NCBI GenBank assembly: GCA_965222305.1
Contig: OZ244943.1
Span: forward strand, 3,974,258-4,038,257
Source: Reichenbachiella sp.
GTDB taxonomy: Bacteria; Bacteroidota; Bacteroidia; Cytophagales; Cyclobacteriaceae
Length of the DNA stretch: 64,000 nucleotides
Direction: 5' to 3'
Shown: piece after piece, positions 9,425 through 27,653 of the stretch
Layout of the letters: each line of letters starts with the position of its first letter
How positions within the stretch are numbered: position 1 is the stretch's first letter
Program-made: the position numbers and the translations under genes
Notes under the pieces: generated by a model
What the model was told of the DNA's origin: nothing
Database searches by the model: none
The model's input: only the letters and a program-made list of their open reading frames with translations

Positions 9425-11422
9425 ATGAACAAAACAACCCAAAACAGAAACATGGATTACATCCATGAAATAACCAAAAAGTCAGAGCGGCTTTTTTCTT
9501 TTGTTATTATCGGATTATTCCTATTTGGAGTTCTTATATCCTTCCACTACGATACGTGGGTTTTCGGATTGGGAATAGGAGGAGCGAATCTGCTTATGGT
9601 ACTACTTTCCTATCGGTTTTTCGCGGGTACGCTGTTGTCCAAAACTATTACCGGACTGGCCATGGGAATGTTTATGTTGCAGTTTGTGGCTCAGTTACAT
9701 GGCATGTATGAGCAGCACTTTTGGTTCTTTATTTTACCCATTTTCCTTATTCTCTATCAGGATTGGCGGGTTTTTATACCTTTTGGTGTTGTTGTAGTGA
9801 TCCACCATTCATTGATTTTTTACTTATCCTTGATTGGGCAGGATCAGTATATGATTTATCTGGTTGGATTTGGAATGAGCTTCACTACTTTTTTCTATCA
9901 TATGGGCTTGGCTGTAGTTGGTCTGCTTGCAAGTATTTGGATGGCTCTGAGTTTGCGAAATGAGACGATTCGTCGGCATGAAGCTAAATCCAAGCTTGAT
10001 GCACAACTGAATGAGATGTCCAAAATGGCATTGGACGTACAACAAGTGGCGAATAAGATTTTTCATACAGACAACAGAGTAGATGGTACTCAGGTATCAG
10101 TGGGCGTCGCCCTGGCATCGCTTCGTGATAATTTCTTATCAGAGATAGATGGAATAACTGCCGAGATGAATAGTGTGGTGAGATCGGCGGCGGATGAGGG
10201 GAATCTGGGTTCCAGATTAAATGAGCAGACTAAGCAAGGAGTTTGGAAAGAATTGTCTAATTCGATCAATACCTTATTGAATTCAATCGCTCTGCCAATG
10301 CAAGTCATTGGATCGATCATGACCCGCCTGGCTGATGGAGACCTTACCCCCAGATACGATGCTAGCGCTAAGGGAGAGATTCTAAAACTAGCCGGACACA
10401 CCAACAAAGCTCTGGAAAACTTAACCCGCCTGATGGCTGAAATGGCTTCGGGCATTAACTCCGTAAAATCCTCAATGGAAGACCTTACCAATAAGGGTGA
10501 TGAAATGGATGGCAATGCTTCTGAAATTGCTAATTCTGTTTCTGAAATGAGCTCAGGGGCTCAAAAACAGGTTCGTCATATAGACGATACCTCGAAAGTC
10601 CTAGAAGAACTTCTGCAGTCTGCCAGGCTCATGGATGAAAAAACCAAGCTGGTGAACGAGGCTACCATCAATGCGGTGGAATTTAGTAAAGAGGGCAATG
10701 ACGTGATTAGCAATGTAGTTGATGACATCAAGCTCATTTCGAAGTATTCTGTAGAAACAGAAGATTCAATACAGATCTTGAATGAGCGCTCACAGGAAAT
10801 CGCCAATGTACTAAAGGTAATTACTGATATTGCTTCGCAGACCAATTTACTTGCACTTAATGCAGCCATAGAGGCAGCACAGGCCGGAGAAGCGGGACGA
10901 GGTTTTGCTGTAGTGGCCGAGGAAATAAGAAAACTTGCGGAGGACTCACGTAGTTCCGCAACAGAAATAAGCGAGCTGATAGAGAGGGTTCAGCAGGATA
11001 CTCGCAAGGCAGTGGGTGTGATTCATGAGATGAAAAAAAGTGTGGGGACTGGCGTAGAATCCACTGAACGAGTGGCCACTACGTTTATGAAAATCTCAGA
11101 GAGCTCACAGCAGTCGTTTGAAATTGGTGGGCAGATCGTGGATGCCGCAACAGAGCAGTCCGACAAGATAGCTGGGGTTGTAAAGGATATGGAATCTGTG
11201 GCAGTCATAGCAGAAGAAAATGCAGCGAGCTCCGTGCAGATATCAAGCGCGGTGACCAATTTCTCATCAGGCATCACACATTATAATCAGAGCTTTAAAT
11301 CTCTGCATCAATTGGCGGATGACCTCCAAGATAGTATTAGCCATTTCAAACTAAATCAAAATGGACAAGGATTGACGAATGGCATGAAACCCGCATCTTT
11401 AGAAAAGGTGTCAGTAGGCTAA
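9425..11422 (+). CDS. Methyl-accepting chemotaxis protein with integral-membrane sensor and tandem HAMP domains
   Basis: Signalling hairpin [38 protein letters not shown]; multi-TM N-terminus; HAMP-like GNLGSRL...[10 protein letters not shown] and DGDLTPRY...GEILKL. Confidence 0.95.
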
Positions 11423-12705: not shown

Positions 12706-13068
12706 ATGAGCGAAGAAAAACTGACTGTAAGACTGAAAAAGCTGCATTGCTATCAAAACAATGAGGAGCGATTTGATGACATCTTTTTAATCTACAAAGG
12801 AGAGCAGATATGGCCGACCGACAAGCGCCATGAGGATGTGCCTGTGGGCACGATGGAGCTAATGGTCGATATCCCAAACGTGGAAGCCGAAAAGGAAATG
12901 GTGGTAGAGATCTGGGATCATGACAAGATCAGTCCTAACGACCTCTATGGCCACGCACGATTTGTGCCTGATCGGCCGGGTGGTGGCCCTTACACTGTGG
13001 ACATGAAGCCGGCTACCGAAGAGGAAGTGGCGCGATTTAGCATTGACTGGGAAGTGTTAGACAAATAA
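12706..13068 (+). CDS. Small C2-domain-like hypothetical protein (120 aa)
   Basis: Start moved to ATG 12706 because the upstream extension overlaps the GT4 gene antisense. VEIWDHDKISPNDLYG resembles the C2 loop-3 motif. Ends 3 nt before the CHAT gene. Confidence 0.6.
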   Translation: MSEEKLTVRLKKLHCYQNNEERFDDIFLIYKGEQIWPTDKRHEDVPVGTMELMVDIPNVEAEKEMVVEIWDHDKISPNDLYGHARFVPDRPGGGPYTVDMKPATEEEVARFSIDWEVLDK

Positions 13069-13071
13069 CAG

Positions 13072-16000
13072 ATGAGAAAAATCTACGCAGGAATATTATT
13101 GATACTTGGAAGCTACCAGGTCTATGGTCAGCAATGGCTCGAACTCTACAACCAAGGGGTTGAAGACTACAACAATTATGAATTGGAGAGCGCCTTGAAT
13201 AATTGTGAAAAGGCCTTGGAGTTGTTCACGACTGAGGTCGAGGAGTACCACAAGAACTCGGCAGCCATCCTGCGTCAGCTTACGCTCATTTGCTATGAGA
13301 GTGATCAGTTGAAAAAGGGGATTGACCATTCCCTGCGAGAACAAAAAGTACTTCAGGCGATAGGCGAGCAAGATCAGCTCATTTACGGCACTTCTCTTTA
13401 CAACCTGGGTTTGATATATTCAGCAGCCGGGGATTGGGAAAAGTCTGAAAATGCCCTGGACAAGGCCCTGGATCTTCACCTGGTGTATCTTGAAGAAAAT
13501 GATCCATCGGTGGCGGAAGTAAGGGGCAGCCTGGCATCCGCCAATTTTTACCTGGGCAACAATGAAAAAGCGGCTGAGCTATTCAGCAAGTCCATCACCG
13601 TACTCAACGATCAGGAACAGGCCTCTCCGGAGTTTTTCAATATTGTGTATTCCTACTCGGAATTTCAATTGACGAATAATGATCCGGCAGGCGCCATTAA
13701 ATCTCTGAAAGTACTCACTGAGTTTTACGATGAATCTAACTATGATGAAAACTACGGAAGCATCCTGGTTAAAATCGGTAGCACCTATCAGGCTCTTGGA
13801 GAAGTAGAGATGGCCAAAGAGCATTTCCAAAAGGCGGCTGACACATTTAGCAGTTTGGGTGCCTACTCATCTGTGGATAACCAGATCGCCCTGAGTCGGC
13901 TCACTTTCATTTTGTTGAATGAAGGGGGGACAGAAGAAGCCGCCGATCTGATGTCGAAACTCGTGGAAGCTCGATCCGGCAACAAAGATGAGGCCTACTA
14001 TACAGCAGTCGCTAATTTGGGAAACATACACTTTACCAACCTTGAATATGCCAAGGCGGGTGAGTACTATCAGGAGGTGATCAAGGCATATGCTACAAGT
14101 GACTTGGGCAAGGAGCCTTATTACCTGGCTGTCTCCGGAATGGCCCTGGTGGATCTGGAAAAAGGCCAATACGCTCAGGCGGTTAATGAAATTGACAAGG
14201 CATTGGCTACAGTTTCAAATAGTTCTCCCTGGAAGGTCAGGTTGCTACAGTCCAAGGCATCCGCCACCACGGCACAAGGTAAATATCCGGAATCCAAAAA
14301 ACTGCTCAATGAGGCCCTGGAATTAGCAACCTCCGGTTCGGATGAGGCTCTAGATTTGAAGGTGACCCTTGCGACCCTCTACACCACTACTCACGAATTG
14401 GCGAAAGCCGAAAAGGTGTATGCGGAAGTCCTCCCGGATTTTAAGAAAAAGAAAGAAACGGCTCGATTGCAATATGCCTCTTTTCTAGGGGTGTACGCTA
14501 CCTATCTCCAGGAATCGGGAAATTATCTGGATGCGGAAAACTCACTTTATGAATCAATAGAGATCAAAAAGGAATTGCTGGGAGAAAAAAATGAAAACTA
14601 CCTCTCCACCTATGAAAACCTTGGTATTCTCTACCTGACCAAGGGGAAGTTTAGTCTGGCAAAAGAGACCTTTACCAACGTGCTCAATCAAAAGGAGTCG
14701 ATGGCTGAAATTTCGAGCAGTTCACTGGCTTATACTTACAACAACCTTGGGATCGTGTCGAAATACCTGGGTGAGTACAGTGAATCGGAGGATTATTTCA
14801 GGAATGCACTTAAGTTTTACGAAAGGGAGTTTGGAAAGGATCATGCGTACTACGCCAATACCTCCAATGAACTGGCACTGCTTTACATGAAAATGGGCAA
14901 TCTGAAAGCTGCCGAACCTTTGTTCCAATCAGCGCTTTCTGTCTACGAGAAAATTCATACCAAAAAGCATGTCGAGTATGCATCTGCCCTGGAAAACCTG
15001 GCAGCCCTTTACACCCTTCAAGGCGAGCCTCAAAAAAGCAGGAGCATACTTGAGGAGGTGCTGGAAATAGACAATGAAGTATTAGGGACACAGCACCCGC
15101 TGTATTCAAAAACTCTGCACAACCTGGCGAGTACTTTGGAGGAGTTGGGGGAATATGAGCAAGCCTCCCGATACTACGAAGAAGCCATCAGAATCTATCA
15201 GGGATTGTTCGGCACAGATCACCCATCCTATGCCAATACCCTCTACAACATCGCAGTGCTTGAACAGGAGATTGGGAACTATGAAGGGGCAAAAGCCCAT
15301 TACGAGCAGGTGATCGCGATTAGGAAGAAGATATTGAACGAAAATCACCCGGATCTCGCCTATAGTGTTTTTGGATTGGCCTCGGTCCATCAAAAACTGG
15401 AGGATTGGGAGAGTGCGAGAGAGGATTACGATTTTGTGATCAACAGTTATTTGCATAGCATCAACACCTATTTTCCTTCATTGAGCGAAGAAGAAAAGAC
15501 AGCATTTTACGCCAAGATCAAGCCGGTGTTCGAAGCGTATCAGGATTTTGCTATTGAATATGTGACCAAAGAAAAGGGATCGGCTGACTCACGAAATGCC
15601 ACACTGAGCAACCTCTATGATTTACAGCTTTCTACCAAGGCTCTTTTGCTTAATGCCACGAACAAGGTACGTAATAGAATACTCAATAGCGGAGACGATC
15701 AGCTCATCGCAAAGTACAACGAATGGCTTTCCGAGAAAGAGGATTTGGTGAAGGCACTCAACATGTCCAACGAAGAGCTCTCGACCAATCAAATCAACAT
15801 CAAGTCCTTGCAAGCGAAGGTCAATGATACCGAAAAGGAACTTTCAAGGCTTTCGGAATCCTTCGCCAGCGAGTACGAAAAGAAAGTGGTGAAATGGCAA
15901 GATGTGAACGCAGCTTTAGAGCCTGGGGAAGCTGCCATCGAGATCCTCCGAATCAAGAAAAACACCAAAAACGATTCGATATACTACGCCGTATTGATCC

Positions 16001-17067
16001 TGAAAGGAGGCCAGCTAAGCCCTCCTGAATTGGTCATTGTAGATGATGGCGATATCATGGAAGGCAAGTACTTCAAACAGTACAAAAACATGATTGTGTA
16101 CAAGTTGGAGAATACCCGGTCGTATGGGTTGTTTTGGGCACTGATCGACCAGGCGTTGACCGGGGTACAAAAGCTGTATCTATCCTCCGACGGGGTGTAC
16201 AACAAGATCAATATCAATACCCTCTACGACCCGGATAAAAAAGAGTACGTCTTTGATAAATACACGATCTACCTGCTCAGTAATACAAGGGAAATGGTGG
16301 AGCAAGCTGGAGGATCAGATGGGTTGGCCGCTACCACTGCTCAGGTTTTTGGTTACCCCGATTACGAAATGGGCGGGGTGGCGGCTGTCACCGAAGCGGC
16401 AACCGAACGAGGATTTGACAAAGGAGTGACCGAACTGCCGGGTACACTCGAAGAGATCGACAACATCTCTCAGACCCTGGACAAAAATGCCTGGAAATAT
16501 GATCGATACGAGCGTGCAGAAGCCAACGAGCAAAACATTAAAAGTGTTGCCAGCCCAACGCTCCTGCACATAGCTACGCACGGATTTTTTATGCCTACCC
16601 TCACAAACCCGCTCAACGAAAACGCAGGGCTTCAATCTCGGGAGGCTAAATTCAATCCCTTGTTTAGATCCGGTTTGCTCATGGCCGGCGCTGCTGTGAC
16701 CTTTAGGAATGACAAGCTGGATGGTGAAGAAGATGGGATACTTACTGCCTATGAAGCTATGAACCTGGATTTAGATAAGACCGAGCTGGTCGTGATGTCA
16801 GCCTGCGAGACCGGCCTTGGCGAGGTGAAAAATGGTGAAGGGGTATACGGATTGCAACGGGCGTTTATCGTGGCCGGGGCAGACAATCTTATCATGAGCC
16901 TGTGGAAGGTCAACGACGAAACAACACAAAAACTGATGTCGCGATTTTATGACAACTGGATCGGTGGCCAACCCAAACAGGCAGCCTTCCATGATGCTGT
17001 GCAATCCCTAAAAAACGAATATAAGGAACCTTATTATTGGGGGGCTTTTGTAATGTTGGGAAAATGA
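13072..17067 (+). CDS. TPR-CHAT domain protein (caspase-like clan CD protease) with signal peptide
   Basis: Signal-like MRKIYAGILLILGSYQVYG-Q; many TPRs; CHAT motifs LYLSSDG, ELPGTLEE, LLHIATHGFF (His codon 16579), VVMSACETGLG (Cys codon 16804), SLWKVND and PYYWGAFV. Confidence 0.93.
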   Translation: MRKIYAGILLILGSYQVYGQQWLELYNQGVEDYNNYELESALNNCEKALELFTTEVEEYHKNSAAILRQLTLICYESDQLKKGIDHSLREQKVLQAIGEQDQLIYGTSLYNLGLIYSAAGDWEKSENALDKALDLHLVYLEENDPSVAEVRGSLASANFYLGNNEKAAELFSKSITVLNDQEQASPEFFNIVYSYSEFQLTNNDPAGAIKSLKVLTEFYDESNYDENYGSILVKIGSTYQALGEVEMAKEHFQKAADTFSSLGAYSSVDNQIALSRLTFILLNEGGTEEAADLMSKLVEARSGNKDEAYYTAVANLGNIHFTNLEYAKAGEYYQEVIKAYATSDLGKEPYYLAVSGMALVDLEKGQYAQAVNEIDKALATVSNSSPWKVRLLQSKASATTAQGKYPESKKLLNEALELATSGSDEALDLKVTLATLYTTTHELAKAEKVYAEVLPDFKKKKETARLQYASFLGVYATYLQESGNYLDAENSLYESIEIKKELLGEKNENYLSTYENLGILYLTKGKFSLAKETFTNVLNQKESMAEISSSSLAYTYNNLGIVSKYLGEYSESEDYFRNALKFYEREFGKDHAYYANTSNELALLYMKMGNLKAAEPLFQSALSVYEKIHTKKHVEYASALENLAALYTLQGEPQKSRSILEEVLEIDNEVLGTQHPLYSKTLHNLASTLEELGEYEQASRYYEEAIRIYQGLFGTDHPSYANTLYNIAVLEQEIGNYEGAKAHYEQVIAIRKKILNENHPDLAYSVFGLASVHQKLEDWESAREDYDFVINSYLHSINTYFPSLSEEEKTAFYAKIKPVFEAYQDFAIEYVTKEKGSADSRNATLSNLYDLQLSTKALLLNATNKVRNRILNSGDDQLIAKYNEWLSEKEDLVKALNMSNEELSTNQINIKSLQAKVNDTEKELSRLSESFASEYEKKVVKWQDVNAALEPGEAAIEILRIKKNTKNDSIYYAVLILKGGQLSPPELVIVDDGDIMEGKYFKQYKNMIVYKLENTRSYGLFWALIDQALTGVQKLYLSSDGVYNKININTLYDPDKKEYVFDKYTIYLLSNTREMVEQAGGSDGLAATTAQVFGYPDYEMGGVAAVTEAATERGFDKGVTELPGTLEEIDNISQTLDKNAWKYDRYERAEANEQNIKSVASPTLLHIATHGFFMPTLTNPLNENAGLQSREAKFNPLFRSGLLMAGAAVTFRNDKLDGEEDGILTAYEAMNLDLDKTELVVMSACETGLGEVKNGEGVYGLQRAFIVAGADNLIMSLWKVNDETTQKLMSRFYDNWIGGQPKQAAFHDAVQSLKNEYKEPYYWGAFVMLGK
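14590..15470 (+). repeat. Kinesin-light-chain-type 42-aa TPR array within the CHAT gene
   Basis: His codons of HAYY, HVEY, HPLY, HPSY and HPDL lie at 14842, 14968, 15094, 15220 and 15346, an exact 126-nt period. Confidence 0.85.
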
Positions 17068-17085
17068 TGCCAGATTTGGAACAGC

Positions 17086-19134
17086 ATGTATAAACATCTA
17101 CTTTTTGGTTTACTCTTTTCTCTTAGCTGTCTGAATCTGGTGGGACAGGAATCCGTTCGCGATTCTACCACATTGAACGTGGCCCAGGGTGTCGTCGTGC
17201 CTAATATTAATTCTCCGGCAGTGGACTATGCCCCTTCTATCTCTGCAGATGGTAAGACGATGGTGTTTGAAACGAACAAGTCCGGGCGATACGAACTGTA
17301 CGAATCCAAAATAGGCAATGATGGACAGTGGGGTGCTCCCGTTTCCATCGATAGTGTCAACAATTTCGGTAAATCCAACGACCTGATTGGCGGCCCCAGC
17401 ATCACCTTTGATGGCAATACGATGTACTTTTTCAGCTCGTTCAGCGGTGGAATGGGGGCTGAGGATATCTATTATTCAGTAAGGGAAGAGCATGGCTGGT
17501 CAAGCCCAAAAAATATCGGTGCACCGATCAATTCATCAGAATATGAGGGGTTTCCTTCGATCTCTGCTGATGGGAAAACCTTGTACTTTGTTCGGTTTCG
17601 ACCTGAGGGCCCTCCCGAGAAAGACCTGAGGAAGTTTATGGAAAGCCAATTCTGCTTCACCATTTATAAATCCGAAAAGGATAAAAATGGCAACTGGTCT
17701 GAGCCCACGAGACTGCCTGAACCGATCAACCGCGGATGTGAAAAGGCCCCACGGATCATGGCAGACAATCGAACCTTGATTTTTTCTTCCATGCGATTGG
17801 ATGGCTATGGCAGCTACGATATGTACCAGTCCCAGCTCGATGATGCAGGAGATTGGACTTATCCCGTTCCGCTCAATTTCGTCAACTCGGAGTTTAGCGA
17901 TCAGTTTGCGTCTATATCTGCCCAGGGTGACAAGATGTACTATTCTTTCAATTCTACAGACATTTATGCAGTGGACATTCCCGAAGAGTTCCAGCAGTTT
18001 AAGAATAACGTGATCCAGGGCTACGTGCGAGAAGGGAAGACCGGTGAGGCGTTGTACGCGGATATTTATGTACGTGATGCGTTTACCTCTGATGAAGTGA
18101 TGCACATCACCACCAACCCTAATGATGGCCGATTTAGCCTGGTACTGGCTGTGGGGGGTAGTTACAATATTGAATTTCGGGAAGAAGGCCATACCACTTA
18201 TTTTACCTCGTTTGACTTGACGCGGGAAACAGAATACAAGGAATTGGATATAGAAGTGGAGCTGTTCGAAAGTGCCCACCTACGGCTCAATATTTTCGAC
18301 ATAGAAATTTTCGAACCGATCGCAGCGGCTATAAAAATTACGAATGCCACAGGCGATTATCAGTTGGACACGATCAGCAGTCGCGAGACGGGCATGCTGG
18401 ACCTCGATTTGCCTTTGGGCAAAAACTATCAAATTCAGATTCAGAAAGAGAATTTTCATCCGGAGCAGTTTGAATTTGACATTTCCGGTCTTACGGTCTA
18501 TCCGGAGTTTGAAAAGGACATAGAGCTGATACCTATCAAGAAAGACGTGGACATTAATGTGGCGGACTTAACCAACAACAGCAAAGTCCGATCCAGGGTA
18601 AGAATCCGAAACAGAAACCGGGATGAAACGATCGATGTGGAAGGCAATCAGACGGTGGCGCTGCGGGTTGGGGATCGCTACGAAATCGAGGCGACCAGTG
18701 ACCAGGGGTATGCATTTAACTCCACGGTCATTGACGTAAATAACAATTCGGACAGCGAGGTAGTCATGAAACTCCAGCCGCTGATCGTGGGTACCAACCT
18801 GACGCTTAAGGATATTTTATTTGAGTCTAACTCCGACCAGTTGACGGAAACTTCATCGGCGGAGCTGTTTAGGGTGATAGGCCTGATGCACAACAACCCG
18901 ACCCTCGACGTAGAGATTTCAGCACATACCGATGACCTGGGTTCTGATTCTTACAACAAAATCCTGTCTCAGCGTCGAGCACAAAGTGTGGTGGCCTTCC
19001 TGATAGAAAATGAAATTCAGGATGACCGTTTTACTCCTGTCGGATATGGTGAGTCCGAACCCCTGGTGCCTAATGCCGATGATGAAAGCCGAGCGAAAAA
19101 CAGACGAGTGGTTCTTAAAATACTAGCGATATGA
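17086..19134 (+). CDS. PD40 (WD40-like) repeat plus OmpA C-terminal peptidoglycan-binding protein (PorE-like architecture)
   Basis: Signal peptide ending LVG-Q; repeats PSISADGKTMVF, PSITFDGNTMYF and PSISADGKTLYF; OmpA motif EISAHTDDLG...NKILSQRRAQSV...GYGESEP...NRRV. Confidence 0.9.
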   Translation: MYKHLLFGLLFSLSCLNLVGQESVRDSTTLNVAQGVVVPNINSPAVDYAPSISADGKTMVFETNKSGRYELYESKIGNDGQWGAPVSIDSVNNFGKSNDLIGGPSITFDGNTMYFFSSFSGGMGAEDIYYSVREEHGWSSPKNIGAPINSSEYEGFPSISADGKTLYFVRFRPEGPPEKDLRKFMESQFCFTIYKSEKDKNGNWSEPTRLPEPINRGCEKAPRIMADNRTLIFSSMRLDGYGSYDMYQSQLDDAGDWTYPVPLNFVNSEFSDQFASISAQGDKMYYSFNSTDIYAVDIPEEFQQFKNNVIQGYVREGKTGEALYADIYVRDAFTSDEVMHITTNPNDGRFSLVLAVGGSYNIEFREEGHTTYFTSFDLTRETEYKELDIEVELFESAHLRLNIFDIEIFEPIAAAIKITNATGDYQLDTISSRETGMLDLDLPLGKNYQIQIQKENFHPEQFEFDISGLTVYPEFEKDIELIPIKKDVDINVADLTNNSKVRSRVRIRNRNRDETIDVEGNQTVALRVGDRYEIEATSDQGYAFNSTVIDVNNNSDSEVVMKLQPLIVGTNLTLKDILFESNSDQLTETSSAELFRVIGLMHNNPTLDVEISAHTDDLGSDSYNKILSQRRAQSVVAFLIENEIQDDRFTPVGYGESEPLVPNADDESRAKNRRVVLKILAI

Positions 19135-21359
19135 AAAACAGTTTCTTACATATCGCAATCGCTCTGTTGATCTTTTCTATGTCATTATCGGCTCAGAAAA
19201 GGGCCAAATATGAGGACGTCCTTCCCGGTATTTTACAAAGTGAACCTACCTCGGCCGTGGCGGCTATCAAGAGTTATTTGGAAGAAGACCCGGAAGACAA
19301 TGTGGGAAAATACTTTCAGCTTGGTCTGATCTATCATCAGCGTTTTGAGTCAAGCGATCCGCTGAAGGAATACAAAAAAGCGATGGCCAATATTGGGCTA
19401 TGTAAGGAGTCCTTTGGGATGGTGAAGCAATATATTGATGAGCGGGAAGTAAACCGAAACGAAGAAGAGTATTTCAATTTTGGATACACGGATGGCAGAG
19501 GGAAACTTGTGATCAAATATGATTCTATCCTGACCACAATGGATCGATTTCTGGCTACACAGGAAGCTTTTGAGCAGAATATGCCGGGTATCTATGAGTC
19601 ATTCACCAAGAGCTATGCAGACTACAGCAAGGCCAATGGCGGCTTCAGCTCGATTATTGGTCGCTACAAGACTTTGAAGGATTTGTACTTATTGTATGAT
19701 TCAAATTTAGAGTCGGAGTTCAATCAGTTAAAAGAGAACTACCAAAGCTCACTGAAGCATTTTGAAGAGTACAAGGCCAAGACGGACACATTCGATATTG
19801 GCTATAGCCAAAAACTGAAAACCGACAGAATCAATATTTATCGATTGGATGGACTGGACGTGGAGGTCAATTTTCTGCAAGATGCCATTCCTGTGTGGGA
19901 CTATGCGACTTGGGTGGATGAGGTGCAGGAGTACATTGATACGGAAATCAAAGCGCTCAGAACTAAGATGGAGCAAAATGAAAAACTCATAGCCAACAAG
20001 CTAAAGAGAACAGAAGAGGATTTTGCGAATGGTTCTTATGAGCAGCTAAAAGTCGACAAGGAGTTTCTTTTTACGCTGAGAAAGTTTGATTTACGATCGG
20101 TAGTGGAACCATTGTTTTTATACAAAGAATGGAAGCACGCGATTTTGCATCAAGAGCATTGGGCGAAAACGATTGATGCGGATCACTCCCAGGCCTTTCA
20201 CCGGAAGATGGCGAGCTATGGCCGCATGGTGCACAACATCCGAAAAGCTGATACCGTGCTGCAGGAGGTGATCAAACGCGATGTTGCGGGTTCGTATGAA
20301 AAGTACAAGAGTTTTATAGACGAATACTACCAGGGAATCGAGGGCATCAAGACCTACGCAAATAGTGAACTGGCCATCAGCGACAAAGACTTTCTGCATT
20401 ACGTGGATAAAATTCAGGAAATCGCGAGAGAAGAATTCAACGAAGAAATTCCTGAAACAACGCTGAAATATGGAAGGTATGTGATCCCTGATTACGAACA
20501 AAAAGACGGAAGTGAGGAAAACCCTGGTCAGCTATTTACTACCAGCATCGTTCGAAACATTGACGGTAGCGAATACCTCGGAGGAGTATTCTTCAAATCA
20601 AAGGAAAACAAAAAGGCCTCTTTTATCTGTAAAAAAGAACCGAATGGGCGAGTGAGCTGGTTCAAAGAATTTTTGTTGGAAAAGGATAGTGCAGGAGCAG
20701 ATTCCCACACGGAAATTGCGGTGCTTTATGCAGCGCAGACAGGTTGTGTTTTTGTGCTGAATGGGAGTCATATTGAGTCTGGAGAGAAGTTCAACGTGAT
20801 CCTGGGCTATGACGAAGGGGGTAACAGGATCATGGAACATGACATTGAAACCACGTCCTACCCAAGAAGCATAGACTTTGTGCAAAGGACACACTCCTAC
20901 ATGGTGACCTTCAAAGGAGAAGACCGGGCGCACAATTTTGATGATGACTCTGAATTGTATATCGATAATATCAACGACCGGGGCGAGTCTGTATGGGAGA
21001 CCGGTATAAGAGTTACCGGCAACGTGACCGGAGTGGTGGTGGTAGAAGATGGCTATGTGATTAGCGGGAACTACCAGTCTATCGAAAACCTACAGGGGCA
21101 GCAAGTGATCGCACCGAATGCCGAGGCGACCTTTTTAGTCAAGCTGAATAAGAAAGGCCGAATGGTCAATCAGTTGTTGTTTTCTAAAGACGAACCCTAC
21201 TACACTGACATTTTCTTCAAGACAGGCGACCATGCGATTCATCTATTCGGAAGTAAAAACGGTCATGATCGGGGACACATCGAGAAGGACGACAATGCCC
21301 TGGTACATTTTATCGTGACCCGGGATTTGCATTTGGTGAGTGATTCTTTTGAGAATTGA
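19131..21359 (+). CDS. Large exported hypothetical protein (helical N-terminus, beta-rich C-terminus)
   Basis: 742-aa ORF with signal peptide ending SLSA-Q and an ATGA overlap with the OmpA-domain gene. No family recognised. Confidence 0.8.
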   Translation: MKNSFLHIAIALLIFSMSLSAQKRAKYEDVLPGILQSEPTSAVAAIKSYLEEDPEDNVGKYFQLGLIYHQRFESSDPLKEYKKAMANIGLCKESFGMVKQYIDEREVNRNEEEYFNFGYTDGRGKLVIKYDSILTTMDRFLATQEAFEQNMPGIYESFTKSYADYSKANGGFSSIIGRYKTLKDLYLLYDSNLESEFNQLKENYQSSLKHFEEYKAKTDTFDIGYSQKLKTDRINIYRLDGLDVEVNFLQDAIPVWDYATWVDEVQEYIDTEIKALRTKMEQNEKLIANKLKRTEEDFANGSYEQLKVDKEFLFTLRKFDLRSVVEPLFLYKEWKHAILHQEHWAKTIDADHSQAFHRKMASYGRMVHNIRKADTVLQEVIKRDVAGSYEKYKSFIDEYYQGIEGIKTYANSELAISDKDFLHYVDKIQEIAREEFNEEIPETTLKYGRYVIPDYEQKDGSEENPGQLFTTSIVRNIDGSEYLGGVFFKSKENKKASFICKKEPNGRVSWFKEFLLEKDSAGADSHTEIAVLYAAQTGCVFVLNGSHIESGEKFNVILGYDEGGNRIMEHDIETTSYPRSIDFVQRTHSYMVTFKGEDRAHNFDDDSELYIDNINDRGESVWETGIRVTGNVTGVVVVEDGYVISGNYQSIENLQGQQVIAPNAEATFLVKLNKKGRMVNQLLFSKDEPYYTDIFFKTGDHAIHLFGSKNGHDRGHIEKDDNALVHFIVTRDLHLVSDSFEN

Positions 21360-21446: not shown

Positions 21447-21608
21447 ATGGAAGAATTGAACAACCAATTTGTACCTGAAACGAACAGGTACGCCGACCTA
21501 TCTCTTGAGGAACAAGAGAACTTGGGTCTACTCGAAATCATAGGTGACGCTGACTCAAACAAAATGGAATCTGACGAAGCGTATTTTGATCTCCTTGTGG
21601 ATAAGTAA
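21447..21608 (+). CDS. Putative 53-aa acidic small protein
   Basis: Not in the ORF track. Manual translation: MEELNNQFVPETNRYADLSLEEQENLGLLEIIGDADSNKMESDEAYFDLLVDK*. It fills the gap and ends 2 nt from the convergent osmC stop; A-rich context before the ATG. Confidence 0.5.
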   Translation: MEELNNQFVPETNRYADLSLEEQENLGLLEIIGDADSNKMESDEAYFDLLVDK

Positions 21609-23027: not shown

Positions 23028-26000
23028 TCACATATTCCTCCTGTACTGCCCCCCAACTTCAAACAGCGCATGCGTGATCTGACCCAGTGAGCAATATTTG
23101 CTGGTCTCCATGAGCTGCTCGAAGATGTTGCCATTTTCGATGCAGACTTTTTGAAGGTTTTTGAGTTCTTCATCTGCATTTTTATGGTGCGAGTGGAGGT
23201 TTTCCAGCATTTCGATCTGGTATTCTTTTTCTTCTGTGGTGGCGCGGATCACTTCCTGAGGGATGATGGTAGGCGAGCCTTTGGAAGACAAAAAAGTATT
23301 CACCCCGATGATGGGGTATTCGCCTGAGTGTTTGAGTCCTTCGTAGTACATGCTTTCTTCCTGGATCTTGCCGCGCTGGTACATGGTCTCCATGGCGCCC
23401 AGCACCCCGCCCCGCTCCGTGATCCGGTCAAACTCAGCTAGTACAGCTTCTTCCACCAGATCAGTCAGCTCTTCGATGATGAAAGAACCTTGAAGCGGAT
23501 TTTCGTTCTTGGCCAGCCCGAGCTCCCGATTGATGATCAGCTGTATCGCCATAGCACGGCGTACCGACTCCTCAGTAGGCGTTGTAATCGCTTCATCATA
23601 GGCGTTTGTATGTAGAGAGTTGCAGTTGTCATAAATGGCGTAGAGCGCCTGCAAAGTGGTTCTAATGTCGTTGAAGTCTATCTCTTGGGCGTGGAGCGAA
23701 CGGCCACTGGTCTGTATGTGGTATTTGAGTTTTTGTGAGCGCTCATTGGCTTTGTATTTCAGCTTCATGGCCTTGGCCCAGATGCGTCGAGCTACCCTAC
23801 CGATCACGGCATATTCCGGATCAATTCCGTTGGAGAAGAAGAAGGAAAGATTCGGGGCAAAATCGTCGACATTCATTCCTCGGCTCACATAATATTCCAC
23901 GAAGGTGAAGCCGTTAGACAATGTCAAAGCCAACTGCGTGATCGGGTTGGCCCCGGCCTCAGCGATGTGATAGCCTGAAATCGAAACGGAATAGAAGTTT
24001 CTCACCCCACTTTGAATAAAATGCTCCTGCACATCACCCATGAGCTTCAGAGAAAACTCAGTGGAAAAAATGCAGGTGTTTTGCGCCTGGTCTTCTTTGA
24101 GAATGTCAGCCTGGACAGTACCTCGGACTCTGGATAGGGCATCGGCCTTTATCTTTTCATAGATTTCTTGATCTAATACCTGATCTCCTGTCACACCCAG
24201 CAACATCAGTCCCAGCCCATCATTTCCTTCTGGTAAGTCACCTTGATAAGAAGATCGCTTTTTGTCCTTATACAGCGCAGAGATTTTTTTCTCAACCTCT
24301 TTTTCCAGCCCGTTTTCCTTGATGTAGAGTTCGCATTGCTGATCGATGGCCGCATTCATAAAGTAGGCACAAATGGTCGCGGCAGGCCCGTTGATGGTCA
24401 TGGAGACCGAAGTTGTTGGATCGCAAAGATTGAAGCCAGAGTAAAGTTTCTTGGCATCGTCGAGACAGCAAATACTTACGCCTGAATTACCAATCTTTCC
24501 ATAGATATCCGGCCGATGATCCGGGTCTTCTCCGTAGAGTGTGACAGAATCAAATGCCGTAGAAAGCCGGGCTGCAGGTAGGCCCTTTGATACATAGTGA
24601 AATCGTGCGTTGGTTCGCTCCGGCCCTCCTTCTCCGGCGAACATTCTAGTTGGGTCTTCCCCTGATCGTTTGAAAGGAAACACGCCTGATGTGTATGGAA
24701 ATTCACCCGGGACGTTTTCCTGTAGAGACCACCTCAGGATATCCCCCCATCCCTCAAATCGTGGCAAGCTGATTTTAGGGATTTTCAGGTGAGACAGGGA
24801 TTCTGTCTTGGTCTCAACCTTAATTTCTTTTCCTCGCACTGAATAGGTAAAATGATCCCCTGAATAGTTGGCCTTTTTCTCGGACCAGTCTTCCAGGATT
24901 TGATGGTTTTCTTTTGATAGCTGATCGACAACTTCCTCTGTTTTGTTTTTAAGCGAATCTGAATCTGGGATTAATTTTTCAGTTCTCTTAAGCGCGAAGA
25001 GGTCATTGGCAAGTGAGGATTGTTGTTCTACCCACTCATCATAGCTTCGGATTTCATCGGATATTTCAGAGAGGTAGCGAGTCCGCTTGGGAGGGATGAT
25101 GAAGATCTTTTCGGACTCGGAAGTTTCCGAACTTTCCGTTGATTTCAAATCACTTGACGTTTTTTCATTCAGTGTTTTGATCACCTTGGAATAGAGCCGA
25201 TTCATTCCGGGATCGTTGAATTGCGAGGCGATGGTGCCAAAGACAGGAAGCTCACTTTCATCGGCCTCCCAAAGCTCGTGATTTCGCTGGTACTGTTTTT
25301 TTACGTCCCTGAGGGCATCGGCAGATCCTTTTTTGTCCAGTTTGTTAAGGGCGATCAAATCGGCAAAATCCAGCATATCGATTTTTTCCAGTTGAGACGC
25401 AGCACCGTATTCAGGAGTCATCACGTACAGTGAAACATCAGAGTGCTCGATAATTTCTGTATCGGATTGGCCGATTCCACTAGTCTCCAAAATGATCAAA
25501 TCAAACGCGCTGGTTTTTAATACGTTGACAGCATCTTGTACATATTTCGATAAGGCCAAATTGGATTGACGTGTAGCCATGGAACGCATGTAAACTCTTG
25601 GGTCATTGATGGAGTTCATACGGATTCTATCACCCAATAGAGCTCCTCCCGACTTTCGTTTGGAAGGATCTACTGAAACGATGGCTAGCGTTTTATCTTC
25701 AAAATCCGCCAGGAACCTTCGAACTAATTCATCAACCAAAGAAGACTTTCCAGCCCCACCGGTTCCTGTGATGCCTAGTACTGGTGTTTTTGAAGATGAG
25801 GCATTTGACAAGACTTCTATTTCTCCTACTCCATTTTCGAATTGGGTAATCGCACGACTCAGTGTTGCCGGATTCTTCTGAGTTAATTCTTTGTTGCTGA
25901 TCTTAATTGAGTCCAATGCATAGTCGCACTGCTCCAGGACGTCGTTGATCATGCCTTGCAGGCCAAGGGTTCTGCCGTCATCCGGTGAGTAGATTCTATT

Positions 26001-26360
26001 GATTCCGTATGCATGCAGTTCCTCAATTTCGGTAGGAAGAATGGTACCCCCTCCTCCTCCAAAAATCTTGATGTGTCCACAGCCTCTTTCTTTGAGCAGG
26101 TCAAACATGTACTTGAAAAATTCCATGTGTCCACCCTGATATGAGGTGATGGCGATTCCCTGTACATCCTCCTGAATGGCACAGTTGACGATCTCATCCA
26201 CAGAGCGATTGTGCCCAAGATGAATGACCTCAGCGCCTGATGATTGGAGGATTCGGCGCATGATGTTGATCGCGGCATCATGTCCATCGAATAAAGATCC
26301 GGCCGTGACGATCCTAACTGAATGGGTTGGTTTGTAGGGTGCTGTTTTTGGGTTTTTCAT
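23028..26360 (-). CDS. icmF: Fused isobutyryl-CoA mutase / MeaB-like GTPase IcmF
   Basis: B12-binding [16 protein letters not shown]-loop [12 protein letters not shown], and mutase core [38 protein letters not shown] and [10 protein letters not shown]. Confidence 0.93.
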
Positions 26361-26405: not shown

Positions 26406-27653
26406 TCAAATGAAACGCTCCAGTGTGAAGGTTTTTTTGACGGTATTTTCACCATCATAAACCCTTAGCGTAATCTTTCTGCCGGGTGATTTCCTCAGCA
26501 TGGCATGCGCTCCGGCAAGCTCAATGCTGGCGTAGGTCATCCCATTGATGCTTAGGATCACATCTCCAATGCGGACGCCGGCTTCATAGGCCGGCGAACC
26601 ATAGCGGACTGCGATCACACGGAAGCTATTGAATTCTTCGCCATTGGCCACAATCGTCATCCCACTCATGTCATGCTCAAACTCCCGCTTGAATTGATGG
26701 TTTTTTTTGAGGTACAGGTATTGGTTATGATAATCTATGACCACATTAAAACGTGATAGAAACTCTCCCCCAATCGTACCATGGTGGCTGCCTTTTTTGG
26801 CCAACGAGCCATAGTCCCCCTTGAGGGGAAAAGAGATGATCGGTTGCTCCAGTTTAAATTCGTCAACCTGTATGGAAGAGACCCTTCCTACGTGACCGAA
26901 AATCTCCCCGCCCAAACCTCTTCCGATTACAGAAGGCACATTTTTCTCCGGAAGGAAGGAGCCTTCGTCCGGGTTGTTGATCAGTAGGGAATGGCTAGCC
27001 CCAGTATCGATCATCAACGGCAACTCCTTAGAACCTTGATCAGCATTCCGAACGGTCACAGGAATGTAAGGTTTAGTGGACTCAAGCGTGATGGGCACTT
27101 TCCTATACTTTTTCTTGACTTTAAATTCCTCGGGTTCATACAGAGTCAAATAATTCTCTTCATAATTGACCTCCACAATAAACCGACTGAAGATATCATA
27201 GCCGATGATGCCAAAAACTTCTGTTCCCAGGCTTTCTCTCAGCTGCAGATAGTCATTTTCCAGAACCAAAAACGGCTGGTATTTGCCGGATTTTACGCCT
27301 CCCGGCAGAGTAAGTGAAACGTTCGATGCCACCAGCGCGGTGATAGAGTCTTGAATGCCGGGTCCCTGAATCATGAGTTTTCTGGGATATTCAAAGTTGA
27401 GAAGATCCCCATAAAACTTCTCCGTCAGGATTGGGTATTGAACTCCAGTATCCAGGATAAATTTTAGGGTGACATCCCCATTGATTTTCACCGGGATCAC
27501 GATGAGGTTATTGAACTGTTCAAACGGGATGCGAATCTTGGTTCGTCCTTCGGGAAGACTGAAGCCCATCTCTTGGCTATTAGCCGAAAGGCATAGCACG
27601 CAGAGCCAGGCAAGCAGAAGGGACTTGAGATAGGTATGGAATAGCTGCTTCAT
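26406..27653 (-). CDS. Exported aspartyl protease family protein with PDZ domain
   Basis: Signal peptide; two DTG motifs (FILDTGV, LMIDTGA); C-terminal PDZ (SPAYEAGVRIGDVILSING). Confidence 0.88.
   Translation of the reverse strand: MKQLFHTYLKSLLLAWLCVLCLSANSQEMGFSLPEGRTKIRIPFEQFNNLIVIPVKINGDVTLKFILDTGVQYPILTEKFYGDLLNFEYPRKLMIQGPGIQDSITALVASNVSLTLPGGVKSGKYQPFLVLENDYLQLRESLGTEVFGIIGYDIFSRFIVEVNYEENYLTLYEPEEFKVKKKYRKVPITLESTKPYIPVTVRNADQGSKELPLMIDTGASHSLLINNPDEGSFLPEKNVPSVIGRGLGGEIFGHVGRVSSIQVDEFKLEQPIISFPLKGDYGSLAKKGSHHGTIGGEFLSRFNVVIDYHNQYLYLKKNHQFKREFEHDMSGMTIVANGEEFNSFRVIAVRYGSPAYEAGVRIGDVILSINGMTYASIELAGAHAMLRKSPGRKITLRVYDGENTVKKTFTLERFI

Follow-up and report, generated by a model that had tools for sequence, protein, structure and literature searches.

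What role might a caspase-like protease play when its gene lies beside genes for proteins of the bacterial cell envelope? The question is raised by a 64,000-nucleotide stretch of a Reichenbachiella sp. genome (GenBank assembly GCA_965222305.1, contig OZ244943.1, positions 3,974,258 to 4,038,257), referred to here as the window, in which four co-oriented open reading frames, g1-g2-g3-g4, occupy positions 12706-21359 of the + strand. A sequence-only reading had described them as a four-gene envelope module built around g2, an apparently exported tetratricopeptide repeat (TPR)-CHAT protease. The open reading frame listing and direct reading of the DNA bore out the tight layout, with junctions of 3 nt between g1 and g2 and 18 nt between g2 and g3 (TGAtgccagatttggaacagcATG) and a 4-nt ATGA overlap between g3 and g4. 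The domains claimed for the four products were likewise recovered: TPR-CHAT in g2, PD40 and OmpA in g3, no known family for g4 and, by fold, a C2-like g1.

12706-13068, + strand: g1, 120 aa from an ATG start; stand-alone protein of predicted C2 fold
13072-17067, + strand: g2, 1331 aa; putative TPR-CHAT caspase-like protease, almost certainly exported, long form
17086-19134, + strand: g3, 682 aa; predicted exported protein with PD40 propeller, CarboxypepD_reg and OmpA_C domains
19131-21359, + strand: g4, 742 aa; predicted exported protein, no Pfam family

The best explanation of this locus, which we hold with modest confidence, is that an ancient envelope pair, g3-g4, was joined once by an inserted switch protease, g2, and in Reichenbachiella only by g1. 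The export signals, domain content, intact and conserved catalytic dyad, conserved adjacency and order of accretion on which this explanation draws are directly supported, and the order of accretion is considered first.

A species-level scan, with one genome per GTDB species, recovered 36 loci in Reichenbachiella, Marinoscillum and metagenome-assembled genomes (MAGs) labelled Cyclobacteriaceae, Roseivirgaceae or Flammeovirgaceae. Wherever enough upstream DNA was available, g2-g3-g4 were colinear (30 loci); g2 was cut by a contig end in three further loci, another three were uninformative on g2, and no locus had the upstream DNA and lacked g2. The gaps within the triad measured -4 to 26 nt where starts were callable, and the genes flanking it varied between lineages. 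With 30/30 informative species-level loci colinear, the g2-g3-g4 arrangement is not due to chance. The co-inheritance predicted for relatives is thus upheld for these three genes and fails for g1, which in the same scan was confined to six Reichenbachiella loci (L009-L012, L041 and L042). One MAG contig labelled 'Rickettsiales bacterium' (L014) also carries a Marinoscillum-like g2-g3-g4 (g4 37% identical) and is probably a mis-binned Bacteroidota contig.

More distant contexts of the g4 family, checked by tblastn, came from Breznakibacter xylanolyticus (Marinilabiliales), from a metagenome scan and, for the most part, from metagenome contigs. A g3-like gene (658-710 aa) lies immediately 5′ of the g4-family gene in 25/25 of the distant loci with upstream DNA, and a TPR-CHAT gene accompanies the pair in only three of these 25 (L070, L071 and L075, whose g4 is ~30% identical to that of the window). 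Sufficient upstream DNA allowed CHAT to be called absent from at least 14 different loci of this distant set. Two of the loci offer a direct view of the difference, being syntenic in the order OEP, MFP, GT9, Maf, g3, g4 and purL, with shared proteins 54-69% identical: in L075, Maf and g3 have a TPR-CHAT gene of 1320 aa between them, whereas in L074 they lie only 150 nt apart. The difference is an insertion or loss of g2 at one site. Accordingly, g3 and g4 are an old conserved core, widespread across Bacteroidota, and the module is not built around the clade-specific CHAT protein, as had been supposed.

The likely source of g2 can be found within its own family. The middle and CHAT regions of g2 have at least 4,900 homologues among the matches listed, most of them ~940-aa TPR-CHAT proteins of Cytophagales and other Bacteroidota that are 40-48% identical over 100% of the query. 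These paralogues are solitary, in that none of the three contexts inspected included a neighbouring g3 or g4, and they possess ~390 aa less TPR sequence than g2. In a neighbour-joining tree, 38 operon-linked g2 sequences formed one clade together with two others from short contigs, which are probably truncated orthologues. The presence of the operon-linked long form, with its ~390 extra TPR residues, in one clade points to a single recruitment to the g3-g4 pair; by its sequence, g2 is best placed as an addition made once, in the Reichenbachiella/Marinoscillum/"Cyclobacteriaceae" clade, out of the solitary exported TPR-CHAT family. As a separate observation on the paralogues, two different solitary 940-aa TPR-CHAT genes (L045/L046 and L047) are both divergent beside the genes for the large and small subunits of glutamate synthase, a position that may be conserved for that paralogue group.

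Could g2 nevertheless be a mere neighbour that landed by chance upstream of g3-g4 and is co-transcribed with them while working independently? Solitary paralogues function without g3 or g4, and g3-g4 function without CHAT in most lineages, both of which such a view would predict. It does not readily account for the tight adjacency in 30/30 informative loci, which has persisted despite divergence of g4 to ~30% identity and changed flanks, nor for the distinct long variant of g2 found in one clade wherever the gene is operon-linked. We consider mere neighbourhood unlikely, and prefer the single recruitment of g2 to an existing envelope pair.

The next question is where the three products act. 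The N-termini of g2 (MRKIYAGILLILGSYQVYG|QQ), g3 (MYKHLLFGLLFSLSCLNLVG|QE) and g4 (MKNSFLHIAIALLIFSMSLSA|QK) each open with a brief basic segment; 12-15 hydrophobic residues come next, positions -1 and -3 are small and position +1 is Gln. Bacteroidetes substrates of signal peptidase I follow a Q-rule in which Gln occupies this +1 position (PMC5837995, PMC10653852), and by these features g2, g3 and g4 are predicted Sec/signal peptidase I substrates. The pattern is conserved: g3 and g4 orthologues have a hydrophobic N-terminus followed by Gln in every case, Gln22 of g4 is invariant in 18/18 aligned members (with Gln in 136/139 of the wider family), and in all g2 orthologues [AS]Q[DE]W comes after a hydrophobic segment. 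The solitary paralogues are similar, with a signal peptide and then Gln in 12/12 inspected and a positive result in 60/68 by a crude test. No segment of transmembrane-level hydrophobicity occurs in mature g2, g3 or g4. The export signals claimed for the three proteins are therefore borne out by conservation in orthologues and solitary paralogues, and the CHAT protein g2 is, as judged from its N-terminus, almost certainly exported. An exported CHAT protein is not, however, special to this locus, since export is the rule across the huge Bacteroidota TPR-CHAT family. In many g2 orthologues (L011, L012, L013, L014, L041, L042 and others) the first ATG falls inside or after the signal peptide and a TTG or GTG lies upstream, so that gene calls made from the first ATG drop the export signal and CHAT would look cytoplasmic. 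A role for the three proteins as type IX secretion system (T9SS) cargo was rejected, as Pfam and NCBIfam models detected no Por_Secre_tail C-terminal domain in any of them.

The features of g2 beyond its export signal are those of a CHAT protease, and are arranged as follows.

13072-13128, + strand: g2 signal peptide, aa 1-19, with a predicted signal peptidase I cut at VYG|QQ
13129-15438, + strand: g2 TPR solenoid, about aa 20-789 (Pfam TPR_12, TPR_10 and others)
15439-16128, + strand: g2 middle region, aa 790-1019, conserved with CHAT family-wide and 49-72% identical in orthologues
16129-17064, + strand: g2 CHAT domain, aa 1020-1331 (Pfam match aa 1020-1330)

The CHAT profile (PF12770) matches g2 with 195.5 bits against a cutoff of 24 (E 1.7e-57). 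The putative catalytic residues are His1170, in the motif HIATHG (codon at 16579-16581), and Cys1245, in SACETG (16804-16806). By profile and by both motifs g2 is classed as a CHAT protein with putative endopeptidase activity, and its orthologues are present in 33 loci of the species-level scan. A phmmer comparison of the middle and CHAT regions with the PDB returned no similarity to any solved chain. It is also conceivable that the domain is a non-catalytic pseudo-protease, with TPR and CHAT serving for binding only, and bacterial pseudo-caspase homologues do exist (PMC6426788). Known pseudo-variants have the catalytic residues replaced, whereas both dyad motifs are kept in 32/33 g2 orthologues and 119/120 paralogues, which renders a purely binding role the least probable of the alternatives considered here, and highly improbable in itself.

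The candidate partners of this protease are the two proteins encoded downstream, of which g3 is the more readily interpreted.

17086-17145, + strand: g3 signal peptide, aa 1-20
about 17203-17985, + strand: g3 PD40 region (Pfam E 2.1e-22, above cutoff)
18013-18252, + strand: g3 CarboxypepD_reg domain, abbreviated CRD (Pfam E 4.2e-8, above cutoff)
18817-19104, + strand: g3 OmpA_C domain, PF00691 (Pfam E 1.6e-20; 73.7 bits against 27.2)

The claim that g3 possesses an OmpA peptidoglycan-binding domain was confirmed by the Pfam score and by a relation to 63 solved OmpA_C chains, among them the C-terminal domain of PorE (6top). The conserved D...R motif of peptidoglycan contact, TDDLGSDSYNKILSQRRAQSV, is present, with TDDLGS...LSQRRAQSV corresponding to the consensus TD..G....N..LS..RA..V. 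This is a standard domain of the peptidoglycan-binding type, and binding by g3 is predicted on that basis. A lipoprotein anchor was rejected because the Cys within the signal peptide is not conserved among g3 orthologues.

The nearest characterised analogues of g3 are PorE (PG1058, type IX secretion) and CHU_0125 of Cytophaga hutchinsonii, periplasmic peptidoglycan-binding proteins with PD40/WD40, CRD and OmpA_C modules that support secretion and outer-membrane integrity (PMC7192894, PMC12773672, PMC5891637). Their three C-terminal modules are all found in g3, which differs from them in having neither an N-terminal TPR nor a lipoprotein anchor and in always being paired with the g4 family. Membership of g3 in either family was ruled out, as it lacks the TPR and lipoprotein signal and its NCBIfam scores fall far under the cutoffs (182.7 bits against 620 for CHU_0125_OmpA, NF053607; 164.8 against 600 for PorE, NF052230).

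The resemblance nonetheless suggests a different division of labour. Here the protease g2 would carry out processing or quality control in the periplasm on other clients, whether of the envelope, T9SS or gliding, and g3, in the manner of PorE or CHU_0125, would be anchored to the wall and help to sustain outer-membrane integrity or secretion without being cut by g2. The three shared modules are consistent with this division (PMC12773672, PMC5891637), as is the disturbance of outer-membrane integrity and protein localisation on loss of CHU_0125 (PMC5891637); furthermore, gldB lies ~4 kb upstream in the window, and a PorE-like TPR-PD40-OmpA gene is found near the triad in L004 and L007. Set against these are the NCBIfam scores and missing modules of g3, flanks (including gldB) that are not conserved between loci, and the lack of any T9SS component or cargo that recurs next to the module. 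Quality control of other clients is possible, if rather unlikely, and the reading that we prefer remains one in which g2 was recruited to act with g3-g4.

The second partner, g4, has no match in Pfam, NCBIfam or PADLOC, as the absence of a family in the earlier description had indicated, and its architecture is drawn from an AlphaFold2 model (pLDDT 87.7).

19131-19193, + strand: g4 signal peptide, aa 1-21
19209-20438, + strand: g4 predicted helical domain, aa 27-436, with one weak TPR (AlphaFold2 model)
20460-21344, + strand: g4 predicted beta-propeller, aa 444-738 (AlphaFold2 model)

A weak TPR_11 match occurs in 9/18 g4 family members. Foldseek with the whole model returned generic beta-propellers only, CylK first, and thus no functional lead. 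A word-indexed protein search had suggested a narrow family, with 35 close matches; this was overturned by a full HMMER profile search, which found 928 representatives (clusters at 50% identity) at E<=1e-3, of which 329 reached E<=1e-30; almost all representatives were full length. Distant members are 20-25% identical to g4 and alike in their signal peptide, Gln and "KY.D" start.

How might an exported CHAT protease and this older pair work together? A useful point of reference is Csx29 of the type III-E Craspase, a CHAT-type protease that cleaves Csx30, a specific partner from its own system (PMC10028731, PMC11106740). Like g2, Csx29 comprises an N-terminal TPR solenoid followed by CHAT with a His/Cys dyad, and because characterised CHAT-type proteases cut one specific partner, g2 would by analogy be expected to be a regulated, site-specific switch protease acting on a partner protein. 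The two differ in that g2 possesses a Sec signal peptide, is about twice as long and has envelope proteins as partners, and no Cas7-11, CRISPR array or Csx30/31 occurs near it. Classification of g2 as a Craspase member was ruled out by the absence of any cas or CRISPR association and by its conserved signal peptide, at odds with a cytoplasmic location.

In the mechanism that we propose, g3 would be a soluble periplasmic protein in which a TolB-like PD40 propeller and at least one CRD beta-sandwich are joined to an OmpA_C domain that binds peptidoglycan non-covalently. Periplasmic g4, with its helical domain and beta-propeller, would add to the domains of g3 further surfaces for protein binding, so that the two together may make up a periplasmic scaffold tethered to the wall. 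On this scaffold g2 would dock by its extended TPR solenoid, and the Cys1245/His1170 dyad would carry out a site-specific 'switch' cleavage, as opposed to bulk degradation, of g3, g4 or a client held by them, thereby remodelling the link between peptidoglycan and envelope. We infer, within this proposal, the assembly of a complex, the proteolytic action of g2 in the periplasm, its substrate and the part that it plays in physiology. The ligand gating suggested by the sequence-only reading, like a function in stress, quality control or defence, is speculative. In its most specific form g2 would be a 'periplasmic separase', TPR-docked on wall-bound g3-g4, that cuts one operon partner at one site on an envelope signal and so releases or rewires the connection between peptidoglycan and the outer envelope; we put this version forward only tentatively, and hold it to be rather unlikely.

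Several considerations weigh against the overall explanation. The signal peptides were called by inspection and orthologue conservation; the g2 tree is of a plain distance-based kind and carries no support values; and co-transcription of g2-g4 is suggested only by tight spacing and conservation. The helical domain of g4 had no informative structural match. As g3 and g4 work without CHAT in most lineages, g2 could also act on unrelated clients. Finally, a free catalytic Cys requires protection in the oxidising periplasm, although gingipains, as secreted enzymes of clan CD, show that an extracytoplasmic catalytic Cys is feasible.

Clan CD peptidases that are secreted (gingipains, clostripain and legumain), together with prokaryotic metacaspases, share the caspase-hemoglobinase fold and Cys/His dyad and are extracytoplasmic or predicted to be so (PMC4357240, PMC3501461), and possible signal peptides have been pointed out on C14 metacaspases of prokaryotes in surveys (PMC3501461). 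In contrast to g2, these enzymes belong to C25, C11, C13 and C14, not to CHAT, and have neither a TPR sensor nor an operon with a peptidoglycan-binding partner. The closest relatives of g2 are instead the solitary Bacteroidota proteins annotated 'CHAT domain-containing tetratricopeptide repeat protein', which have the same signal peptide, +1 Gln and dyad; g2 differs from them in its additional ~390 aa of TPR, its position adjoining g3-g4 and its separate clade. A literature search for exported or periplasmic CHAT proteins, CHAT linked to OmpA and the operon found no description. To our knowledge, the characterised CHAT-type proteases (separase, HetF and Csx29) all act intracellularly.

The combination of propeller, OmpA-like and TPR parts also recalls Tol-Pal, in which the periplasmic TolB (PD40 propeller), Pal (OmpA-like peptidoglycan binder) and CpoB (YbgF, TPR protein) are encoded side by side, and NCBIfam gave a weak YbgF TPR match. 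The locus differs from Tol-Pal in the fusion of propeller and OmpA_C within g3 and in the presence of a protease, and identification as a Tol-Pal operon was rejected, there being no adjacent tolQRA and the Pal and YbgF models scoring under cutoff.

CHAT proteases are best known from immunity, as in the type III-E Craspase (PMC10028731, PMC9729208), which raises the question of whether the module is an envelope defence or conflict system, in which the exported TPR-CHAT protein would respond to periplasmic molecules from phages or competitors by triggering proteolysis. In support, CHAT proteins occur within a variable type VI secretion system region of B. fragilis (PMC11854122), and the TPR-CHAT family is much expanded, as is common for conflict genes. 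The genomic context does not fit this view. The module is preceded by GldB, MCP and GT4 genes and followed by genes for OsmC, a TPM-domain protein and a fused MeaB/methylmalonyl-CoA-mutase-family protein; these neighbours are housekeeping genes and the GC content of the window is even. No tandem CRISPR-like array was found at the locus, no gasdermin, STAND, cas or other defence genes occur among the module or its neighbours, and PADLOC-DB 2.0 matched the module proteins with generic TPR and ZorB/MotB-like OmpA models only, with no system-specific match. The array search, defence models and neighbour annotation thus agree with the original statement that no CRISPR, gasdermin or STAND gene is nearby, and designation as a defence island was rejected on the basis of the housekeeping flanks, even GC and lack of defence-model matches. 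In addition, each genome record yielded one locus where it was recovered, the pattern looks vertical (identities track taxonomy and the g2 clade is near-monophyletic), and the g3-g4 pair is widely conserved without CHAT. A function in defence is accordingly judged very unlikely, and the locus is better described as an envelope pair with a recruited protease.

It remains to place g1. The Pfam C2 profile scored 19.6 bits, under its cutoff of 22, and the AlphaFold2 model of g1 (pLDDT 87.4) is an eight-stranded C2 beta-sandwich by fold: among the PDB matches listed by Foldseek, 50/50 were C2 domains, with TM ~0.45-0.64. An alignment of homologues (n=22, each at least 56% identical and 117-122 aa long) showed the loop D71-x-D73-x5-D79 to be invariant. 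Loops of this DxDx5D type bind Ca2+ in the C2 domains of eukaryotes. A longer g1 starting from TTG (12481) and overlapping the divergent glycosyltransferase gene was unsupported, because the homologues start at the equivalent of the ATG. The absence of a signal peptide means that g1 cannot share a compartment with g2-g4; it is a peripheral, cytoplasmic add-on and probably not part of a periplasmic machine. For this reason, and given its restriction to Reichenbachiella, the locus is not a four-gene module.

Matches to sigma-70 promoters, to terminators and to TAnnTTTG, the -7 motif of Bacteroidetes, were no more than expected by chance and were uninformative on operon structure, and the region downstream of g4 is only weakly structured in its fold (z -2.3). 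The window (64 kb) holds no further paralogues of g1, g2, g3 or g4. Co-oriented with g4 and 87 nt downstream of it is a 53-aa acidic open reading frame (21447-21608, + strand); related loci contain nothing conserved that corresponds to it, and for that reason it is probably not a gene. Beyond the module, an MCP gene (HAMP and MCPsignal domains; 9425-11422, + strand) lies ~680 nt past gldB with a 192-aa open reading frame between them; gliding Bacteroidota are not usually linked to MCP-based chemotaxis, and the gene here is in such a genome. The fused protein downstream (1110 aa; 23028-26360, - strand) combines B12-binding, MeaB GTPase and methylmalonyl-CoA mutase-family parts in an IcmF-like architecture, and next to it a 415-aa retropepsin-like aspartyl protease with PDZ (26406-27653, - strand) gave a weak match to the PADLOC candidate PDC-M08B (E 1e-7). 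In two other lineages, a separate ~665-aa TPR-PD40-OmpA gene of PorE/CHU_0125 type is located a few genes upstream of the triad (L004/L005, 1-435, - strand; L007, 1-540, - strand), and is absent from the window.

Overall, Bacteroidota possess a very large and unstudied TPR-CHAT family whose Sec signal peptides are conserved; one lineage of it shares a fixed operon with a peptidoglycan-binding protein. The g3-g4 pair is itself a widespread and undescribed envelope module, and g4, although its family numbers more than 300 clusters, is without a Pfam entry. The L075 and L074 loci, which carry g3-g4 with and without the protease gene, offer a natural comparison for finding its substrate. If g2 does work in the periplasm, the reach of caspase-like switch proteolysis would widen to include the bacterial envelope; and if it acts there as a 'periplasmic separase', its solitary exported TPR-CHAT paralogues, which number in the thousands in Bacteroidota, would represent an unrecognised class of extracytoplasmic signalling proteases.

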